Source: an uncultured Acidobacteriota bacterium
Lineage (GTDB): Bacteria > Acidobacteriota > UBA6911
Assembly: GCA_963809485.1 (NCBI GenBank)
Contig: CAWEJX010000007.1
Coordinates: forward strand, 224,001-288,000
Reading direction: 5' to 3'
DNA: 64,000 bases
Shown here piece by piece: positions 6,237-58,639 of this stretch. Position 1 is the first letter of the stretch; every line of letters begins with the position of its first letter. Under the pieces are notes generated by a model. It was not told where the DNA came from and made no database searches. It was given only the letters and a program-made list of their open reading frames with translations. Both the position numbers and the translations under genes were made by a program.

Positions 6237-6536
6237 GGTTTCTGTTGCGAAACTCGGGTTTTGCGAAAAAGCCAATTTTTTCAACAGTCAATAGGATATT
6301 TGATTTTACATAGAAGCCGATAATTGGAGTCAGGCCGCGTAGCGGCCAGCTGAATTTAGCCAGGCCTTTTAAGGCCTGGATCGAAAGGAGTTATGTTTTC
6401 CGTCGCGTAGCGCCGGCTGAATCTCAGGCGGCGCTACGCGACGCGCTGCTCGCTATACCATGGTTCCCGGCCTTGAAAGGCCGGGCTAAAATCATAGTGC
6501 CGCTACGCGGCACAAACCAGTTTCGCGACAGAAACT
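6237..6536. mobile_element. 300-bp MITE (family A, copy 1) with TIRs, 4-bp TSD and internal GTAG-type REP palindromes
   Basis: Ends ggtttctgttgcgaaact and agtttcgcgacagaaact; flanking ATCT duplicated at 6233-6236 and 6537-6540; homologous copy at 58340-58639. Confidence 0.85.
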
Positions 6537-26820: not shown

Positions 26821-27438
26821 TTGTGGAACCAACCATATCCGGATGATGACCGCAAGTTGATCGCCCGATGCCAGGCAGGAGATTCACTGGCTTTCGAGGA
26901 ACTGGTCGCGAAGTATCAGCAAACGGTTCTGAATCTTGTTTATCACTATATCGGCCCCCGCGGCGAAATCGAGGATGCAGCGCAGAAAATCCTCGTCAAA
27001 GTATATTTCTCCCTTCCAAAGTTCGACAACAAGCGGCCTTTTTTCCCGTGGCTGTACCGCATTGCGATTAACCAGTGTTACGACGAAATCAGGAGGGCCA
27101 GACGCCATAAAACCCACACATTCACGGAGCTGGACCTTGAAGACCCGGAAAGCATAGAGAGGCTGATCCGTCAAGCCGAGTCCCCGCACCATTCGGATGA
27201 AAACCGCCAGGAAATGCAGGCCCTTCTGCATCGGATGCTGGACCAGTTGCCGGATCAGCAGCGAACGGCTATCGTGCTGCGCGATATCGAGACGGTCCCC
27301 TACTCCCAGGTAGCCGCAATACTGAAGTGCACGGAACAGGCCGCCAGGCTGAAGGTTTTCCGGGCGCGGGCGCGGCTGAAGAAACTGGTGGAAAAAGCCC
27401 TGCAAGCCAAAGATCCGCCGCCCAATGCATCCCGGTAA
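26821..27438 (+). CDS. ECF RNA polymerase sigma factor
   Basis: AFEELVAKYQ, FFPWLYRIAIN, region 4 helix-turn-helix ending FRARARL. Confidence 0.9.
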   Translation: MWNQPYPDDDRKLIARCQAGDSLAFEELVAKYQQTVLNLVYHYIGPRGEIEDAAQKILVKVYFSLPKFDNKRPFFPWLYRIAINQCYDEIRRARRHKTHTFTELDLEDPESIERLIRQAESPHHSDENRQEMQALLHRMLDQLPDQQRTAIVLRDIETVPYSQVAAILKCTEQAARLKVFRARARLKKLVEKALQAKDPPPNASR

Positions 27439-28241
27439 CGCTGACTTACGCTGATAAAAACCCGACGTACGCTGACCTTGAAAAATTTATATGTGTTTTT
27501 TCAGCGTTGGTCAGCCTATGTCGGCGCAAGTCAGCGTTTATTTCCGGAACGGTAACGCTGACTTACGCTGACAAAAACCTGACGTACGCTGACCTTGAAA
27601 AATTTATATGTGTTTTTTCAGCGTTGGTCAGCTGATGTCGGCGCAAGTCAGCGTTTATTTCCGGCACCGGTAACGCTGACTTACGCTGACAAAAACCCGA
27701 CGTACGCCGACCTTGAAAAATTTATATGTGTTTTTTCAGCGTTGGTCAGCCTATGTCGGCGCAAGTCAGCGTTTATTTCCGGAACGGTAACGCTGACTTA
27801 CGCTGACAAAAACCTGACGTACGCTGACCTTGAAAAATTTATATGTGTTTTTTCAGCGTTGGTCAGCTGATGTCGGCGCAAGTCAGCGTTTATTTCCGGC
27901 ACGGTAACGCTGACTTACGCTGACAAAAACCCGACGTACGCCGAACTTGAAAAATTTATATGTGTTTTTTCAGCGTTGGTCAGCCCATGTCGGCGCAAGT
28001 CAGCGTTTATTTCCGGCACGGTAACGCTGACTTACGCTGACAAAAACCCGACGTACGCCGAACTTGAAAAACTCATATGTGTTTTTTCAGCGTTGGTCAG
28101 CCTATGTCGGCGTAAGTCAGCGTTTATTTCCGGCCTGGTAACGCTGACTTACGCTGACAAAAACCTGACATACGCCGAACTTGAAAAACTCATATGTGTT
28201 TTTCCAGCGTTGGTCAGCTGATGTCGGCGTAAGTCAGCGTT
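27433..28241. repeat. Tandem array of seven ~117-bp palindromic (hairpin) units
   Basis: Unit starts at 27433, 27550, 27668, 27785, 27902, 28019 and 28136; each has acgctgacttacgctgac...gtcggcgcaagtcagcgt arms. Confidence 0.92.
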
Positions 28242-29526
28242 CAGTGACGTTTTGTAGAGCAGCCCAGAAGCCGGGGAAGCTGACGTCGGCGCACTCCGCA
28301 TCGTGAATGCGCGTCTCTCCCTGGGCTGAAAGCGCCGCAACGGCAAACGCCATCGCGATCCGGTGATCGCCCCGCGTATCTATGTCGGCCCCATGCAGGT
28401 GCCGGCCTCCGCAGATCACGAGGCCGTCCGGCTTTTCCTCGACGCCGGCGCCCATGGCGCGCAGGTTCGTGGCCAGAGCGGAGATCCTGTCGCTTTCCTT
28501 CACGCGCAGCTCCCGGGCATCGGAGATTTCGAGCCCTCCCGCCTGCGCTCCCAGAACGGCCAGCACGGGAATCTCGTCGATAAGGGCCGCCGCCAGGCTG
28601 CCCCGGATCGCGGGAAGCTGGCGCTCCAGAAGGGCCGGGCTGTGCCGGACCCTCAAGTCACCGCGAGGCTCGCCTGCTTCTTCCGTCTCTTTTTCGATCT
28701 CGAGGTTCAGGCCCGCTTCCAGAACATAATCCAGCAACTCACGCCGCCGCCGGTTCAGACCCGCTCCCGGTATACGCAGATCCGATTCCGGGACTATGGC
28801 TGCGGCTGCCAGAAAGAATGCCGCGCCCGAAAGATCGCCGGGGACCGCGAGATGGCGCGCCTTCAGGACAGGTTCCGGATCAACTTCGATCCAATTTCCT
28901 TCGACACGGAGCGTTCCGCCGAACTCTTTCAGCGCAATTTCGGTGTGATCGCGCGTGGGGATGGTCTCCTCCACCGCCGTCGGTTTATCCGCATACAGGC
29001 CCGCCAGGAGCACGCACGATTTCACCTGTGCGCTCGGCACCGGAAGCCGGTAGCGCATTCCCCTCAGAACTCCTCCCCGTATTTTCAGCGGCGGCAGCCC
29101 GCGCTCCCTCGACTCCAGCACTGCGCCCATTTCCCGGAGGGGCTGGATGATTCGCGCCATCGGCCTGCCGGACAGCGACGAATCTCCCGTAATCACGGAT
29201 TCAAAGGGATGGCCGGCGAGAATGCCGGAGAGCAGGCGGATCGTCGTGCCGGAATTGCCCGCATCGAGGACGCGGCCGGGGGCGCGCAAGCCCCGAAGCC
29301 CGCGTCCGCGGATCGTGACCGTTTCGCCGGATTCCCGGACATCGACTCCGAGGGCTCGCAGGCATTCGAGCGTGCTGTGGCAGTCCCGGCTTGCGGCAAA
29401 GTGGTCGATCACCGATGTGCCTTCGGCGATGGCGCCAAGCAGGGCATAGCGGTGCGAAATGGATTTGTCTCCCGGGAGCTGGACTTCTCCGGAAACTGAA
29501 TTCGCTGAGTTGAGCGCCTGGATCAT
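28234..29526 (-). CDS. aroA: 3-phosphoshikimate 1-carboxyvinyltransferase
   Basis: [33 protein letters not shown]. Confidence 0.96.
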
Positions 29527-31888: not shown

Positions 31889-33688
31889 TTGAGTGACAAA
31901 AACCATATAAGGAATTTTTCCATCATCGCGCATATCGACCACGGCAAATCGACCCTGGCGGATCGCCTGCTGGAACGGACCGGCGCGCTTACCAAGCGTG
32001 AGATGTCGGACCAGGTTCTGGATGCCATGGATCTGGAGCGGGAGCGCGGCATCACCATTAAAGCGCACTCCGTCCGTCTGAATTACTGTGCCGCAAACGG
32101 CGAGGACTATATCCTCAACCTGATCGACACGCCGGGGCACGTAGATTTCTCCTATGAAGTCTCCCGGAGCCTTTCAGCCTGCGAGGGCGCACTGCTCGTC
32201 GTGGACGCTTCCCAGGGCGTCGAGGCTCAGACCCTCGCCAACACCTACCTGGCCCTGGATCACCACCTCGAGATCGTGCCCGTCATCAACAAAATCGATT
32301 TGCCGGGCGCGGAAATCCCGCGCATCAGGGACCAGATAGAAAATATCATCGGGCTGGACGCCAAGGACGCCATTCTTGCCAGCGCCAAGGAGGGAATCGG
32401 CACCGAAGAAATCCTTGAGGCGATCGTGCACCGGCTGCCTCCGCCGCAGGGTGAGTATGACCGGCCGCTGAAGGCTTTGATTTTCGACTCCTGGTTCGAT
32501 TCCTATCGGGGAGTGATCGTGCAGGTGCGCGTCATCGACGGCACGCTGCGCAAGGGGCAGAAGATCCGGATGGTCGCAACCGCCCAGGTCTTCACCGTCG
32601 AGCAGGTGGGCGTCCTCACCCCCAAGCTCCTGGAGGTGGAGGAGCTGTCGGTGGGGGAGGTGGGTTATGTGATCGCCAACATCAAGCGTGTCGCCGACAC
32701 ACGCATCGGGGACACCGTCACGGAGGACGCCCGGCCGACGCCCGAGCCTTTCCCCGGATTCCAGGAAGTGAAGCCCATGGTTTTTGCGGGGCTCTACCCG
32801 ACCGACAATGCTTACTATGAGGCTCTCCGCGACGCTCTCTCGAAGCTGCAGCTGAATGATTCGGCCTTTTATTATGAACCGGACACATCGGGCGCCCTGG
32901 GATTCGGATTCCGCTGCGGCTTTCTCGGACTGCTGCACATGGAGATCGTGCAGGAACGCCTGGAGCGCGAATTCAACCTTTCATTGATCACTACGGCTCC
33001 GGGGGTGCGGTACCGTATTACGACGCACAAAGGCGAAACGTTTGAAATTCACAATCCCTCGAAGCTTCCGGAAGCAGGCGAGATCGCCAAATTCGAAGAG
33101 CCGATGATCAAGGCCATGATTCTCACCAACGACGAGTACGTCGGACCGATTCTCAAACTGGCCGAGGAAAAACGCGGAGTGCAGAAGGGCTTCGAATACA
33201 TCACGAAGAACCGGGTCCTGATCACCTACGAGCTCCCGCTGAACGAGATCGTCCTGGATTTTTACGACCGGATGAAATCGGCATCCAGAGGCTATGCCTC
33301 TCTGGACTACCATTTTTGCGGATACCAGGAATCCCGTCTGGTCCGGCTGGATATCCTGGTGTCCGGAGAGCCGGTGGATGCGCTCTCCCTGATTGTTCAT
33401 CAGGACACGTCCGTGGTTCGGGGGAGAGCCCTGGCAGCAAAAATGAAGGAGCTGATTCCCCGGCAAATGTTCGAGGTTGTCATACAGGCTGCCATCGGCA
33501 ACAAAATCCTGGCGCGTGAAGTGGTCCGGCCCATGCGGAAGAACGTGCTGGCAAAGTGCTACGGGGGCGACATCACGAGAAAAAGAAAGCTGCTGGAAAA
33601 ACAAAAGGAAGGCAAAAAGCGGATGAAGCGTCTGGGCAAGGTCGAAATTCCGCAGGAAGCGTTCCTGGCAATCCTAAAAGTGGAGTGA
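31889..33688 (+). CDS. lepA: Translation elongation factor 4
   Basis: [45 protein letters not shown]; TTG start at 31889. Confidence 0.97.
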
Positions 33689-33833
33689 AGTCTAGCCGAG
33701 GAAAAGAAGCCGGGAAAAAAGGAATCATGAAGTCTGTACTTCAGTTTTAAACTGGGAACTCTGAACTGGAAACTGAATTTCTTGAACCATTCAGATATAC
33801 AATTTCCCAGGTAATTGACCGGCCAATCGCTGC

Positions 33834-34982
33834 CTATTTTTCTTCTCCAGCCGATCCTGAAGGGTGGAGTTTTTTCAGTTTGCTTGACACCTTGGCAAGC
33901 CGATTGATGAGGCGCTGCATTGTAAGCTGTTGTTTTGAAGCGTTGAGGCCTCGCCGATTCATTTCGAGGAAGTGCATCGCATCGGCAATGCACTGGAGAG
34001 CACGGATATGAGGGTGTACGGATTGGTTACGGGGATTGCTGCGTTGCGGCAGCTGGTAGAGGTTGGCCAGGTTGGCTCGGGCCGAACTATATTCGCGTTG
34101 TAGATCTACCTGACTCACCTCTACATAACGCATTGTCATTTCGATTTTTGTATGTCCGAGGAGTGTTTTGACTGCAGGCAGGCTGGCGCCGCCGCGGAGC
34201 ATCTCGGTCGCAAAAGTATGTCTCATTTGATGCGTCGTGATTCGGGACGCACTGCAGTTTGCTTTTCGGGCCGCTTTCCTGATCATCGCGACCATTTGGC
34301 TATACGAAGGACGGGAGCCATCTTCGCGCATTAGCAAGAAGGTGGATAATTTTCTGGCCTTAGCCGGGGCTCGATTGCGCAAATCATCGAGGTGTTCAAT
34401 AAGACTACGGCTATGGGCGTCCAAGGGAACCAATCTTTCCGTATGCATCTTGCCGAGAGGGACGCGGATTGCCCACTGTTGATCGCCCAGATCCCGGAAG
34501 CAATCGACTGCGAGATTCAAACATTCACCAACGCGCATACCGGTGGCACGCATGAGAAGCAGCGCAGTTGCTTCAACGGTGCCTTTTTTGCGGAGTTCTT
34601 CGCAAATGAGGCGATCATCTTCGGGCGAGAGGGGCCGGGGAAGGTACTTGTCCAGGTGTGGGAAGTCTCGGCGAACGATGAGGTTTTCTCTTATTCGGTC
34701 TATTCCTTCATCGGCAAGGTCGCGAAGGCACTTGCGTAGCTCATAGAGTTGGTGGAGACGGGTGCAGGTTCGGGAGCTGGCCAAAGTTGAGATCCATCCG
34801 AGGATATGCGGATCCCGCCTGAGTTGGGAGAGCTTATGAATCTCGGGGTGGTTTTGTTTGAGGAAGCGCATGAAGCCATTCAAAGTGCTTCGATACCGAT
34901 ACATCGTGTTTGGCCTGTGAACAATAGCAAGACTCTGAAGATAGGAATCGAAGATCTGTTGAATAGTGCGCGGTTTACTCAT
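33834..34982 (-). CDS. Tyrosine recombinase/integrase (second of pair) with C-terminal extension
   Basis: GMRVGE (R), GK, HQMRH, LLGH, TMRY; ATG 34982 overlaps the upstream integrase end. Confidence 0.9.
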   Translation of the reverse strand: MSKPRTIQQIFDSYLQSLAIVHRPNTMYRYRSTLNGFMRFLKQNHPEIHKLSQLRRDPHILGWISTLASSRTCTRLHQLYELRKCLRDLADEGIDRIRENLIVRRDFPHLDKYLPRPLSPEDDRLICEELRKKGTVEATALLLMRATGMRVGECLNLAVDCFRDLGDQQWAIRVPLGKMHTERLVPLDAHSRSLIEHLDDLRNRAPAKARKLSTFLLMREDGSRPSYSQMVAMIRKAARKANCSASRITTHQMRHTFATEMLRGGASLPAVKTLLGHTKIEMTMRYVEVSQVDLQREYSSARANLANLYQLPQRSNPRNQSVHPHIRALQCIADAMHFLEMNRRGLNASKQQLTMQRLINRLAKVSSKLKKLHPSGSAGEEK

Positions 34983-36033
34983 CGAAGGAAGCACTCCGGA
35001 GTTGGGCCAACGCTTGCGATCGCTTTTCGACGGCGCGGTGATATTCCCGCCAGACATCCTGGGGAGACAATTCCACGTAGAGCATGGTCGTGTGAATCTG
35101 AGAATGACCCATGAGTCGCATCAGTGCGGGTACTGAAACGCCGGCACGGATCATGTCGGCACCGAAGGTGTGGCGGAACCGATGCGGGTGGGCGTTGATC
35201 GTTTGAGTCGCACGTCGATGGTGACGAAACAACGAACGCAGGCCGGCGGATGTCATCGGTTGGCCGCGCCGCCATCCCTTGAGAGAAAGAAACAGGAGGG
35301 GCGACCCGAAAGCAGGCCGTTCGAATTCGAGATAACGCCTAAGAACCCGAATGATCGCATCTGCCAATGGCAGAACCCGCTGTCTGTTTCCTTTGCCACG
35401 AACAAAGATCTGAGTCTCGGAAAGCCGCAAATCTTCGAGCCGGAGTTGGATCGTTTCATGGGAACGCAGGCCGTTAAAAAGCATCAATCCCACGAGACTG
35501 AGGTCACGGAAGGTGCGAAAGCTGGACCAGAAACGTGAAACTTCATCAGGCTGGAGGGGGATGACGACTTTTCGAGGTTGTCGTAACCGCAGTCCCGCGA
35601 TTGCGGTGCTGGGTTTTCCTATGCCCATTGGACTTCGTCTCTTGTATCGGGTTTGCACACTGGCGCGAGTTCTGGGGACTTCCTTCTGGTAGTAGAATCG
35701 GTACAGGGATCGGACAACCACCAAACGATGATTGACCGTAGGCGGCGACGGCTTGGGTTCGTTTTCAAGTTGGTATCGAACGTAATCGAGCAGACGAAGC
35801 TCGTTGAGAGTGGATAGACTCGGCCAGCGAGAACCGTGTAACCACCAACGGACGAAGTTCAACAGATCGAACCCATACGAGCGCAAGGAACGGACGGAAA
35901 GGTTGCGCAGGTACTGGGCATCCAGAAAATCATTGATGAAACGGACCGGCTGGTCCTTAGAATCCAAGAGTTGATAGGGAGACATGCCCGCAGGGCCGGA
36001 TGGGTAACGAATGAGATGAAAAGGCGGGGTCAT
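34975..36033 (-). CDS. Tyrosine recombinase/integrase (first of pair)
   Basis: GLRSHE (R), GKG, HRFRH, LMGH, TMLY; ATGA overlap with the primase stop. Confidence 0.9.
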   Translation of the reverse strand: MTPPFHLIRYPSGPAGMSPYQLLDSKDQPVRFINDFLDAQYLRNLSVRSLRSYGFDLLNFVRWWLHGSRWPSLSTLNELRLLDYVRYQLENEPKPSPPTVNHRLVVVRSLYRFYYQKEVPRTRASVQTRYKRRSPMGIGKPSTAIAGLRLRQPRKVVIPLQPDEVSRFWSSFRTFRDLSLVGLMLFNGLRSHETIQLRLEDLRLSETQIFVRGKGNRQRVLPLADAIIRVLRRYLEFERPAFGSPLLFLSLKGWRRGQPMTSAGLRSLFRHHRRATQTINAHPHRFRHTFGADMIRAGVSVPALMRLMGHSQIHTTMLYVELSPQDVWREYHRAVEKRSQALAQLRSASFDE

Positions 36034-37037
36034 ACACATTGTGCTTCCTCCAGACATCTTGTGAAATCAGCAGCGGTGGCTCCGGAAACAAAGAAACTAT
36101 TGGGATCATGGTTTTCCGGAAGCGGTACGATCTTCGATTGCAGACCGGCCTCCCGGAGTTGCCGTGCCAGTTTCAAAGCAGCGCGTTGACCGGCAGCATT
36201 CGTATCCGAGTCAAAAGCAATGAAGATCTGTCTATTGAGATCGTCGCATAGTTGGGCAAACTGCTTGCCTGTCAGGTGGCAGCCGAGAGCGCTGGTTGTA
36301 TTGCGAAAGCCAGCCTGCCAGAGAACCGCAAGATCGAAAAGGCCTTCCACCAGGATAACGTTGGGAGCATTGTGAATCGACTCCCATGCGACCAGGCCGA
36401 TCCTAACACGAGGCAGAAATCGATGTGGCGGCGGGGGACCGATGCTGCGTCCGTACAGATTGACGATGCGGTTCTGATCGAGACAAGGAAAGACGATGCG
36501 GTGAAAGAAGGTGTCATGCCCCTTTTGATTTATCAATCCAAGATTCACGAGCCGGTCGTAATTGTGGCCGCATACCGATAACAGGTGCCCACGCAAACTG
36601 CCGCCTGGCGCATAGCCCAATCGAAGGTGACGTAATATCTCTGGATCCCGCAATCCGCGTTGGTGAAGATAGTTCATCGCTTCCTGGTGGTGCTGCAACT
36701 GATACTGGTAAAAAGCGACCGTATCGCGGAGGAGGTCGTCATCACCCCTGAGCTTGTCCCATTCTCCGGCCAGCCGTGCGACGCTATCGCGGAAAGAAAG
36801 GTTGAAGTAGACCTGGACGAAGCGAATCAAGTCGCCGCCATAGCCACAGCCATGGCAGTGAAAAAGATTTTTCTCGGCGTTGACATAGAACGACGGCTGG
36901 GTCTCGGAGTGCAGCGGGCACAATCCAACATATTCGTTCCCTGAACCCACAGGACGGCCAGTCCAATTGAGGCGTTTGAGATAATCCAACAGTGGAAGAT
37001 CGCGCTTAAGTTTTTCCACTTCCTTGCAGTTTGCCAT
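36030..37037 (-). CDS. DnaG-like primase (CHC2 zinc finger + TOPRIM), lacking the C-terminal helicase-binding domain
   Basis: GLCPLH..PSF...FHCHGC, VEGLFD, FDSD; GGAGG before ATG 37037. Confidence 0.88.
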   Translation of the reverse strand: MANCKEVEKLKRDLPLLDYLKRLNWTGRPVGSGNEYVGLCPLHSETQPSFYVNAEKNLFHCHGCGYGGDLIRFVQVYFNLSFRDSVARLAGEWDKLRGDDDLLRDTVAFYQYQLQHHQEAMNYLHQRGLRDPEILRHLRLGYAPGGSLRGHLLSVCGHNYDRLVNLGLINQKGHDTFFHRIVFPCLDQNRIVNLYGRSIGPPPPHRFLPRVRIGLVAWESIHNAPNVILVEGLFDLAVLWQAGFRNTTSALGCHLTGKQFAQLCDDLNRQIFIAFDSDTNAAGQRAALKLARQLREAGLQSKIVPLPENHDPNSFFVSGATAADFTRCLEEAQCV

Positions 37038-37420
37038 CAGAGCCTCCGGACGGGAACGCCTGTTCGGCCGCAAATGATGCAGGCGATACGTTCGAGAGGG
37101 TTTGCTCTCGCAGATCCGACGTTCCCTGACTTTGATGGATCGATCCTGACATTACTGTCTTGGCTTCTGGAACCCTGATACGTCACGCTTTTTTTATTGG
37201 ACTGGCGCAGACGATAGTTGCGCTGGTGGTCTCGATGGTCGAGTTTGCCTAAGGGACTTTGCCGGTAGCGTCTATTCGCTTCGCGCAGTTGGTGCCGGCG
37301 GGCGCGGTCCCGACATGCCTGACTGCAGTAGTGCTGTCCGCGATCGCAGTGACTGCAGATATGGAATATCTTGCCGCACCCCGCGGCATGGCAAGATCGT
37401 TGCCGGAGGATGAGTTCCAG
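37037..37420 (-). CDS. Cys-rich, basic putative Zn-finger protein (not in ORF track; CTG start or a 1-nt error near 37421)
   Basis: Open frame LELILRQRSCHAAGCGKIFHICSHCDRGQHYCSQACRDRARRHQLREANRRYRQS...CIICGR; its TGA overlaps the primase ATG (TGATG). Confidence 0.72.
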   Translation of the reverse strand: MELILRQRSCHAAGCGKIFHICSHCDRGQHYCSQACRDRARRHQLREANRRYRQSPLGKLDHRDHQRNYRLRQSNKKSVTYQGSRSQDSNVRIDPSKSGNVGSARANPLERIACIICGRTGVPVRRL

Positions 37421-37494
37421 GGGCCAATCGTCCTTTCCCGAAGGCGGGACTCGACAACGGCCCCCATGTCATGGCACGCTAAAGACGACTTTGG

Positions 37495-37562
37495 TTCTGG
37501 GAGCTTTAACCGGGCTCTTGGAATTTAGCCTCGATCGTTACAGCGGTCGGGGCTTTCTTTTT
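37495..37562 (+). ncRNA. Candidate structured antisense RNA in the element leader
   Basis: Two adjacent 12-bp stems that need G-U pairs and so fold on the + strand only (37495-37523 and 37527-37554), followed by ttcttttt. Confidence 0.55.
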
Positions 37563-37881
37563 CCGCCTTTCACGCCGCCACGATATCACCACCAGGGCTC
37601 AAGAAATCTATTGCAGTTACCCAGAAGCAAAGAACACGGCTGAATAAAAGAGAAACCAGCTGAAAGAAAAAATAGGCAGCCACTCCTGGGCTGGTTTAGA
37701 AAAAACGACATTTTGGCCGGTTAATAGGTAAGTATCTTTTACATGGTTTTTGATATTGTTATACCCTATACCGATGTCTGAACGCCGTTGGAGGCATTCG
37801 GGCGTGGCAGCTCAAATAAGATATAAGGACGGTCCTTCATCCGGCCGATCAGAAGGGCATTCCATGGGGGAACCAAGGCAT

Positions 37882-38268
37882 ATGCGACCTAAATACCTCA
37901 TCCTGCGGGATTGCCAGGGCAAAGGGCTCTTTGGCTGTCTGTTGTCGCTTGTCCTGATGGGAGTGGCGATCTTCCTGGCTATCAAGCTCGGCCCCATGTA
38001 TTACGCGAACTACAACCTGGAAGCCGACGTCGAAACCGAAGCAAGCCGCGCAGGAGCCCGTTTCCTCGACAATGACACGATCATCAACGACATCCTGGTC
38101 ATGGCGAAAAAAAACGAAATTAGGCTCACGAAGGAAAACGTCACCGTGGAGCGTTTTGCCGGCCAGATCCACATCGAGATACGCTATGCCGTTCCGGCCG
38201 ATTTCTTGTTCTTCAAGCGGGACATGAATTTTGAAATATCGGCTTCGAGCTTCATCGGCACATTGTGA
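37882..38268 (+). CDS. Small membrane protein, DUF4845-like
   Basis: Pilin-like hydrophobic N-terminus QGKGLFGCLL...KLGPMYY; located after lepA as DUF4845 genes often are. Confidence 0.6.
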   Translation: MRPKYLILRDCQGKGLFGCLLSLVLMGVAIFLAIKLGPMYYANYNLEADVETEASRAGARFLDNDTIINDILVMAKKNEIRLTKENVTVERFAGQIHIEIRYAVPADFLFFKRDMNFEISASSFIGTL

Positions 38269-38480
38269 CGCTTCAGCCTCCCCGGCCATCGCCCGATTCT
38301 TGATACATACTTAAGCAACCGCGTATCCAAGGAATTTACGAAAAGCTCTTACGAACCGCAGAATGTCGAATAATGAATGATGAATTTCGAAGTCCGGCCC
38401 AAACTTCTGCGGTTCGACATTCGTCATTCGATATTCGTATTTGCTGCCTCGCCGGCAGAACCGGGGGATAGCCCTGCATA

Positions 38481-39156
38481 TTAGGTAGCATACACAACCT
38501 CAAGACCCATCATGTCGGCCAGCTCCTGCATCTCCCGGGTATAATCCCCGTATACCATGGATAGATGGCTTCCAAAATCGCTCAGCTTACGCAAGCATTC
38601 CCGGGCATCAGGAACTTTTAAATGGGCTGCCAGCGAACAACCGATCAGGGTGCCTTTGTTGAAGCCGGTGCAGCCAATAACTTCGCCCTTTGCGAGATAC
38701 ATCTTTGTCCGGCTCCAGCCTGGCCAGCCGTTCCGGATGAATCCAGAAGTCTTCGGAATACTCCAGGAGCACCGGGTCCAGCAACTGCATATCCGGGCCC
38801 AGGTTTTCTCTGAGTTCTTTTGCAAATTCCTTCACACCGGTTTCCGCGTCGGCCCTCTCCTGCTCCGGTGTCCTGCCGTATGCCAGGCTCCACCATGCCG
38901 CCACGTCGATCATGTTTTCAGTCTTAGCCGACTTCGGCCTTTCTCCGACTGAAGGCCGGCACGGCCCTAAACAAACATCGGTATGGATGATGGGAGAATA
39001 GACCGGTTTGACGGCAAGTTTGATATCCAGAGGACGGTCTATCGGTCCTTTGGCAAATTCAGTCCGCTGCGGAGGATCCTTCGCATTCGCAGAATTTGAA
39101 AGCACCAGGGATCCTGCAGCAACGCCGACGCTTCCCAGAAAATCCCGTCTTTTCAT
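38481..39156 (-). pseudogene. Tat-exported L-fucose/L-arabinose isomerase-like protein, internally deleted and out of frame
   Basis: The N-terminal frame (MKRRDFL...) and a C-terminal frame (GC...V.DAR...FGSHLSMVYGDY...L...MGLEV) meet near 38700. Confidence 0.6.
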
Positions 39157-58339: not shown

Positions 58340-58639
58340 AGTTTCTATCGCGGAACTCGGTTTTTGCGAGGATACCGGATTCTATAGCAGTCGACAGGAT
58401 ATTTGATATTACATGGAAGCCGGAAATTGGAGCCAGGCCGCGTAGCGGCCAGTTGAATTTAGCCGGGCCTTTTAAGGCCTGGATCTGAAGGAGTTAGGAT
58501 TTCCGTCGCGTAGCGACGGTTGAATCTCAGGAGTCGCTACGCGACGCGCTGTTCCAAATACCATGAGTCCCGGCCTTAAAAGGCCGGGCTAAAGTCATAG
58601 TGCCGCTACGCGGCACAAATCAGTTTCGCCACAGAAACC
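58340..58639. mobile_element. 300-bp MITE (family A, copy 2) between gspJ and gspK
   Basis: TIRs agtttctatcgcggaact and agtttcgccacagaaacc; TSD AGTT at 58336-58339 and 58640-58643; colinear with 6237-6536. Confidence 0.85.

Follow-up and report, generated by a model that had tools for sequence, protein, structure and literature searches.

The leader of a small mobile element in the 64,000-nucleotide stretch of DNA analysed here (the window) probably contains a gene for a cis-antisense RNA of about 76 nt. As judged from sequence comparison, this gene would form part of a portable control cassette that damps expression of the element operon. The class of mechanism is known, the RNA family is absent from Rfam 15, and sharing of such a unit between two element classes was not found in the literature searched. 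An earlier sequence-only reading had proposed either a plasmid-style countertranscript controlling the primase operon or an RNA that recognizes the element ends. The countertranscript reading is supported, its promoter, two stems and strand bias being conserved; plasmid-style control of the primase proved too narrow a description, because the cassette belongs to a zinc-finger ORF and also precedes istA in other elements.

The element (33811..37732, − strand; 3,922 bp, or 3.9 kb) comprises a zinc-finger ORF, a primase and two tyrosine recombinases, with a GTAA core at both ends. The left end (33811..33826, + strand) consists of the GTAA core and a 12-bp inverted repeat, and the right end (37713..37731, + strand) of the 12-bp inverted repeat, TAG and the GTAA core; both were read from the sequence and recur as the far-end motif and the end motif, respectively, in homologues. 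A GTAA core beside a 12-bp inverted repeat is the layout expected of tyrosine recombinase sites. A second copy, 100% identical, was located on another contig (G000:C4:215000-218921), giving two copies in the genome, and an empty site was found in a related genome (G006:C81). The four genes lie on the − strand and each overlaps the next: the zinc-finger/basic-helix ORF (37037..37420; about 127 amino acids, probable CTG start, stop overlapping the primase ATG), a DnaG-like primase assigned by domain match (36030..37037; CHC2 zinc finger and Toprim), tyrosine recombinase 1 (34975..36057; PF00589, E = 2.3e-31) and tyrosine recombinase 2 (33834..35057; PF00589, E = 6e-31), the true start of which is probably near 34980. 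A lepA homologue (+ strand) lies immediately upstream of the element. Between lepA and the left end, a short repeat (33750-33805) has many copies in the genome, including a cluster on C19.

The element lacks istA and istB and so does not belong to the IS21 family; it contains no IS110-family recombinase, both enzymes being PF00589 tyrosine recombinases. Resemblances to RIT (recombinase-in-trio) elements are the size (about 3.5-4 kb), an overlap between the tyrosine recombinase genes, terminal inverted repeats that are short, and the occurrence of identical copies. RIT elements, however, have three adjacent recombinases, whereas the window element has two, together with a primase and a swappable first ORF. 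No description of an element family with a primase and two tyrosine recombinases was found in the literature searched.

The two consecutive 12-bp stems reported earlier on the + strand were recovered with their loops, TAACC and TACA, and with the eight G–U pairs claimed (five in stem 1 and three in stem 2). Stem-loop 1 (37493..37525) has its 12-bp core at 37495-37523, is extended to 14 bp by RNAfold, and is G–U rich and variable in sequence. Stem-loop 2 (37527..37554) is conserved, covarying and terminator-like; it is followed by a T run (37555..37563, + strand; TTCTTTTT at 37555-37562) that corresponds to a pyrimidine-rich tail in homologues. Strand-specific folding, also claimed earlier, was borne out by RNAfold: the + strand of 37481-37562 gave −34.1 kcal/mol (z = −4.74, with none of 200 shuffles as low) against −14.6 kcal/mol (z = −0.97) for the − strand. 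With its start placed from the −10 box and its end from the T run, the predicted antisense RNA spans 37487..37563 (+ strand; about 76 nt); the corresponding distance from the predicted start to the end of stem 2 was 65-79 nt in 18 loci. Of these 18 loci, only the window and L014 have 6-7 T among the 8 positions of the T run; the remaining 16 have 1-5. The tail is pyrimidine-rich throughout, and the weak T run leaves the 3′ end of the RNA unsure.

A terminator scan detected stem 2 and the T run on the + strand. Together they make a good intrinsic terminator in the window, and the element lies just downstream of lepA; the unit might thus be an insulator, in which an outward promoter and a terminator stop + strand read-through (here from lepA) without any control of the element. 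We consider this improbable: a promoter just 44-55 nt upstream of the terminator hairpin would make little sense, nor would a conserved extra hairpin, and the T run is poor in most homologues.

Searches with Rfam 15 returned no family at the gathering threshold for window positions 33000-39000 (best 21.9 bits against 58) and, for 10 homologous loci, a match to an unrelated group II intron alone. Stem 2 scored 19.7 bits against P22 sar (RF00262; gathering score 43 bits, E = 2.7, 28 nt matched), an RNA of similar size and two-hairpin plan. A group II intron domain was seen at L024:3971-4191, downstream of a homologous element.

The weak promoter-like TCGACA-N18-CACGCT described earlier at 37451-37480 (+ strand) is present and falls under the cut-off of a simple promoter scan. 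The putative antisense promoter, which follows a pattern seen in homologues, consists of a −35 box (TCGACA, 37451-37456), an 18-nt spacer and a −10 box (CACGCT, 37475-37480), and is accompanied by a TG extension (37472-37473) that the earlier reading had not mentioned. Across the 12.07 million positions of this genome, 38 matches to the full pattern were counted (3 per million). For comparison, 37 leaders were picked by homology of the zinc-finger protein alone; the set includes near-copies, and three loci of one genome were left unparsed. The search on the antisense strand required a −35-like hexamer separated by 16-19 nt from nAnnnT. A sigma70-like pattern (TNGACR, 17/18 nt, TGnCAnnnT) was present in 26/37 leaders, the passing promoters lying 79-108 nt (mostly 92-96 nt) upstream of the protein motif. 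The 11 of 37 loci that fail the pattern count against the antisense-RNA reading. Three misses (L149, L151 and L157) retain the −35 box and the TG and lack the final T; four others (L145, L146, L155 and L160) carry the zinc-finger ORF in front of unrelated genes with the whole RNA leader missing, the next genes presumably resembling those for an ArdC-type antirestriction protein or conjugation-type genes.

A less redundant set of 18 passing loci has spacers of 17 nt (13 loci) or 18 nt (five loci); 17 of the 18 carry TG at −15/−14, and every one has C at −12. GAC, A−11 and T−7 are not independent evidence, since the search pattern demanded them. A perfect TTGACA −35 box was found in L131-L133. 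The C at −12 is unusual for a sigma70 −10 box and may reflect a constraint on the sense strand. In several loci the antisense −35 box doubles as part of the hairpin around the ribosome-binding site (RBS) of the mRNA.

When homologous leaders were aligned and examined for covariation, the stems were found to be conserved and stem 2 to covary; promoter, stems and strand bias persist across loci with a mean column identity of about 57%. Hairpins lie downstream of the antisense promoter in 22/22 loci folded, as a tandem pair in 18 closer loci and as one long hairpin in four distant IS21 loci. In a count over 20 loci anchored on an invariant CG step, 93.75% of the cells of stem 2 were paired and double changes occurred in 9/12 pairs, counts that do not represent independent events because kin share changes. 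This anchored count was relied on because the model-fitted count, which was far above shuffled and slid controls, includes mirror-strand matches and one-base register shifts. RNAalifold on the raw MAFFT alignment yielded three pairs only, the stems being misregistered there.

Wobble pairs of stem 2, read on the antisense strand of the 20 loci, comprised 18 G–U against two A–C. Folding was better on the antisense strand for stem 1 in 16/18 loci, despite its variable sequence, and for stem 2 in 14/18. Stem 2 has a CCCG/CGGG core of strongly conserved sequence, and the ORF downstream encodes a basic, cysteine-rich protein; both would suit inverted repeats that act as DNA sites, either as an operator for the zinc-finger protein between the promoters or as single-strand hairpins for the primase. 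Such sites are nevertheless a poor explanation, to which we give little credence, because the half-site spacing varies with the hairpin loops (3-9 nt), the G–T wobble is one-sided and the unit occurs in IS21 elements, which have no primase. For this last reason the idea of hairpins serving as an origin for the primase was likewise rejected.

In 388 kb of sequence, a covariance model (R1) built from eight loci outside the window's group recovered window positions 37449-37568 (+ strand, E = 0.0019), two close kin of the window and IS21 leaders. Searched over 151 genomes, it matched in five; the 13 strong matches (E below 1e-6, three genomes) all lie beside matches to the zinc-finger ORF. The model is weak for the window's group and missed both window copies in the whole-genome search. 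Nor were the distant IS21 leaders L127, L128, L134 and L138 found by R1; these keep the antisense promoter and have a single long hairpin, whose inner loop region contains CCGCCAAG/CTTGGCGG.

On the opposite strand, a sense −10 box with a TG extension (TATCGT, 37580..37585, − strand) would place the mRNA start near 37574. In 20 of the 27 loci listed, a sense TAnnnT stands 17-27 nt upstream of stem 2, with no consistent −35 box alongside in these 27; the misses are L140 and L141 (TATTGA), L151 (hairpin mis-picked) and the four distant IS21 loci. A second upstream −10-like box (TATTTT, 37669..37674, − strand) may be a relic of a box common to elements with other first ORFs.

The start of the zinc-finger ORF is predicted to be hidden in an mRNA hairpin covering the RBS (37420..37465, − strand), which overlaps the antisense −35 box. 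The start region was largely paired in 21/21 leaders folded, at an RBS opening cost of 9.5-24.9 kcal/mol, and the hairpin arms change together in the window, L014 and L015. The predicted antisense RNA falls 48-69 nt short of the start codon in these 21 loci (about 66 nt in the window) and overlaps the Shine–Dalgarno (SD) sequence or start codon in none of them. The distance from the stop of the zinc-finger ORF to the next start is about −20 to +37 nt in primase loci and, to the istA start, about −14 to +9 nt in most readable IS21 loci; this overlap or near-abutment suggests translational coupling.

Homologues of the zinc-finger ORF start with ATG, GTG or TTG. The protein matched no Pfam or NCBIfam family at cut-off, its structural model (mean pLDDT 74.5) had no Foldseek match at E = 0.001 (best VIA Z 3.3), and its Atlas neighbours were all hypothetical. 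A role as an activator would be no more than an analogy with phage Mu Com.

We infer that two promoters about 100 bp apart fire towards each other. The − strand promoter would start the element mRNA near 37574, with a leader of about 150 nt ending in the hairpin that hides the start of the zinc-finger ORF. The + strand promoter would make the two-hairpin RNA, fully complementary to approximately nt 10-87 of this leader. The RNA may pair with the leader first by loop–loop contact and then as a long duplex, which would lower expression of the whole operon, the more so as copies accumulate. Among the sequencing runs listed, no RNA run was seen to hold the sequence, a result that counts neither for nor against a transcript. 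Among the candidate blocking steps, our first choice is loss of a standby site at which ribosomes would enter upstream, because the RNA does not cover the RBS; decay triggered by the duplex comes next, and then collision of the promoters, and these effects may add up.

No specific switch of the RBS hairpin on pairing was seen in equilibrium folds. When the antisense-covered region was blocked, the RBS opening cost rose in 12/21 loci (mean 1.5 kcal/mol); in none of 15 loci was the rise beyond tail-shuffled controls. Two further devices were rejected: long-range 'anti-anti-SD' pairing of a conserved 5′ GGCGG with the RBS hairpin (probability at most 0.06 in 18/21 loci), and an antisense-induced terminator in the mRNA, there being no U run behind the RBS hairpin.

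The missing switch would also fit transcriptional collision in cis, with the hairpins mattering mainly as structure of the mRNA leader and the short RNA a by-product. The convergent −10 boxes about 100 bp apart agree with this, as does the stable fold of the sense leader, which in some loci surpasses that of the antisense strand. We nevertheless hold collision as the main effect to be unlikely, since the wobble pairs favour the antisense strand by 18 to 2 and stem 1 folds better there in 16/18 loci, a bias that points to selection on the antisense product itself.

The preferred reading, an antisense brake that travels as a cassette, draws on comparison of the wider element family. At least 5,998 primase homologues were counted among 8,000 candidates scored. 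The sample drawn for comparison combined the best 80 of 562 confirmed metagenome loci with a handful of viral and genome-derived ones. Throughout this sample the order primase–Int1–Int2 is kept wherever the contig is long enough. The first ORF varies: of the 88 oriented loci in this combined sample, 59 have a DUF6431-like ORF, 11 the zinc-finger type of the window (with L056 added by eye) and two a third type, and the remaining 16 are unassigned, mostly because they are cut by contig ends. The third type (L045 and L048) is cysteine-rich, sits on the same element backbone and has no Pfam match at E = 1. The upstream end motif is present in 59/62 testable loci and the downstream (far) one in 38/43 testable homologues of the same sample; in the family the 12-bp end repeat is near-invariant and the core variable, at 6-7 nt.

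DUF6431-type leaders (for example L043, L024 and L016) carry a different head of similar logic: a sense TATTCT box, a purine-rich SD-like tract and one long hairpin precede an ORF that in most loci has an apparent ACG start, with GTG or ATG there in others. In 53/56 of these loci an antisense TTG is spaced 17 nt from TGnGATAAA; TTG alone is independent in this count, the TG/GA part having served as the anchor. Their hairpin has no strand bias (26/55), and some of the sense loops are UUGGCA or UUGGCG, like the ColIb-P9 target loop in a reference title. Homology of the antisense RNA to this hairpin was rejected, as the covariance model gave no match in about 28 such loci.

The zinc-finger ORF and its cassette also precede istA of IS21 elements, in named plasmids in 4/5 records opened, and the IS21 branch that carries the cassette reaches plasmids of Pseudomonadota. 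The ORF was found in 14/401 genomes of the phylum of the Bryobacterales genome behind L001. In a quick maximum-likelihood primase tree (71 rows) the zinc-finger type changes five times, and well-supported branches force at least four gains or losses. In the zinc-finger tree the recombinase-linked and IS21-linked rows do not form two clean groups; the recombinase label changes three times, one change being forced by strong branches, so that one origin is compatible with this tree. By eye, L019 shares sequence with DUF6431-type leaders up to the expected start of their hairpin, from which point the zinc-finger cassette takes over.

The occurrence of the cassette before unrelated IS21 transposons makes a portable antisense brake, and not a guide RNA, the most likely interpretation. 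A more far-reaching version, which we put forward tentatively and with some doubt, is that the promoters, antisense RNA, RBS hairpin and zinc-finger ORF constitute an interchangeable head with a history of repeated moves between DDE (IS21) elements and those with tyrosine recombinases and a primase. Its variable loops would define incompatibility groups, one RNA silencing unrelated transposons with the same head, and the zinc-finger protein would be a counter-acting, RNA-binding activator of the leader.

A guide function, in which loop 1 of the RNA would bring the zinc-finger protein or the recombinases to the ends of the element, had been suggested earlier by an 8-nt identity. The identity is real: TTAACCGG (37506-37513) is identical to 8 nt in the − strand reading of the right-end repeat, with p = 0.022 against shuffles of this RNA alone, before correction for the many possible comparisons. 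Loop 2 moreover contains TTAC, complementary to the GTAA core. The idea is already largely refuted and we consider it scarcely credible. The six other testable elements with ends on the contig, including the 83%-identical L014, showed matches of 4-6 nt only (p = 0.41-1.0). Loop 1 does not covary with the terminal repeat but changes independently of it, the end being near-invariant (59/62 in the best-80-of-562 sample) while the loops vary. In the combined sample, 59 family elements have the same ends with another first cassette. The RNA also occurs in IS21 elements, which are moved by a different enzyme, and TTAC stays in loop 2 both there and in L015, whose core differs. The covariation of loops with the donor end or target that characterizes bridge and seekRNA-type RNAs was thus absent from the loci compared.

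Plasmid R1 (CopA/tap-repA), I-complex plasmids (RNAI/Inc) and pT181 have structured antisense RNAs of 70-90 nt, located upstream of a leader ORF adjoining a replication-type gene. Such plasmid countertranscripts provide the leader-ORF layout (PMC10724649 and PMC4374534, as far as the available text goes), and a structured antisense RNA and a leader ORF abutting the controlled gene are common to both systems. The window element differs in being chromosomal, and IS21 carriers of the cassette lack a primase, so that control of a plasmid initiator does not describe it; no antisense-induced terminator was found here, and the leader ORF encodes a conserved 127-amino-acid zinc-finger protein.

Direct precedents for a cis-antisense repressor are IS10 RNA-OUT and IS200 art200, according to the accessible part of PMC4513863. 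As described there, art200 is a 90-nt antisense RNA to the tnpA 5′ UTR; it resembles the predicted RNA in being a short cis-antisense RNA that has a promoter of its own and faces a transposon leader in which a hairpin hides the SD sequence, and in having a good −35 and a poor −10 box. It covers the 5′ UTR plus codons one to three, whereas the predicted RNA ends 48-69 nt upstream of the start, and sequence, element and first gene differ. RNA-OUT is one hairpin that blocks 30S binding directly (PMC4513863, same portion); the present unit, in contrast, would place a pair of hairpins upstream of the RBS, with a leader ORF preceding the transposition genes. A promoter of its own opposite the mRNA leader and a short structured RNA with a fold apparently selected on the antisense strand are the features that it would share with both. 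For the proposed standby mechanism, the consulted part of PMC5934652 describes IstR-1, which blocks a standby site about 100 nt upstream of a structured RBS on tisB; the antisense target likewise lies well upstream of a stably structured RBS. The tisB/IstR-1 system differs as a toxin–antitoxin locus with non-overlapping genes, and the standby site in the window leader is a proposal only.

No paper on this antisense RNA, cassette or element family was found in a literature search that covered few subscription journals and did not extend to ISfinder. The available portions of two papers on Solibacter mobile elements (PMC3469429 and PMC3174227) mention phage integrases and not this unit, and 'primase' does not occur in that of PMC3174227. 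A Paracoccus survey notes, in the part available, extra IS21 ORFs of unknown, probably regulatory role (PMC3281130); the cassette would account for the unannotated ORF preceding istA.

Antisense brakes have been described for few insertion sequences only, and the unit would add a new RNA family, carried both by an element family of very large size (at least 5,998 homologues of the primase) and by an IS21 branch. If the cassette is swappable, the control of transposition would evolve modularly, apart from the transposition enzyme, and mutual repression could arise within one cell between elements of different classes. The cassettes would also offer natural sense–antisense pairs for synthetic RNA switches.

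Other repeats were seen in the window. At 27315-28252 a 117-bp unit with an inverted repeat inside it recurs about seven times in tandem, and this array is REP/BIME-like; related palindromic units occur at 2831, 10647, 12770, 15187 and 20965. A 298-bp repeat with nested inverted repeats is present at 6238-6535 and 58341-58638 (86% identity).
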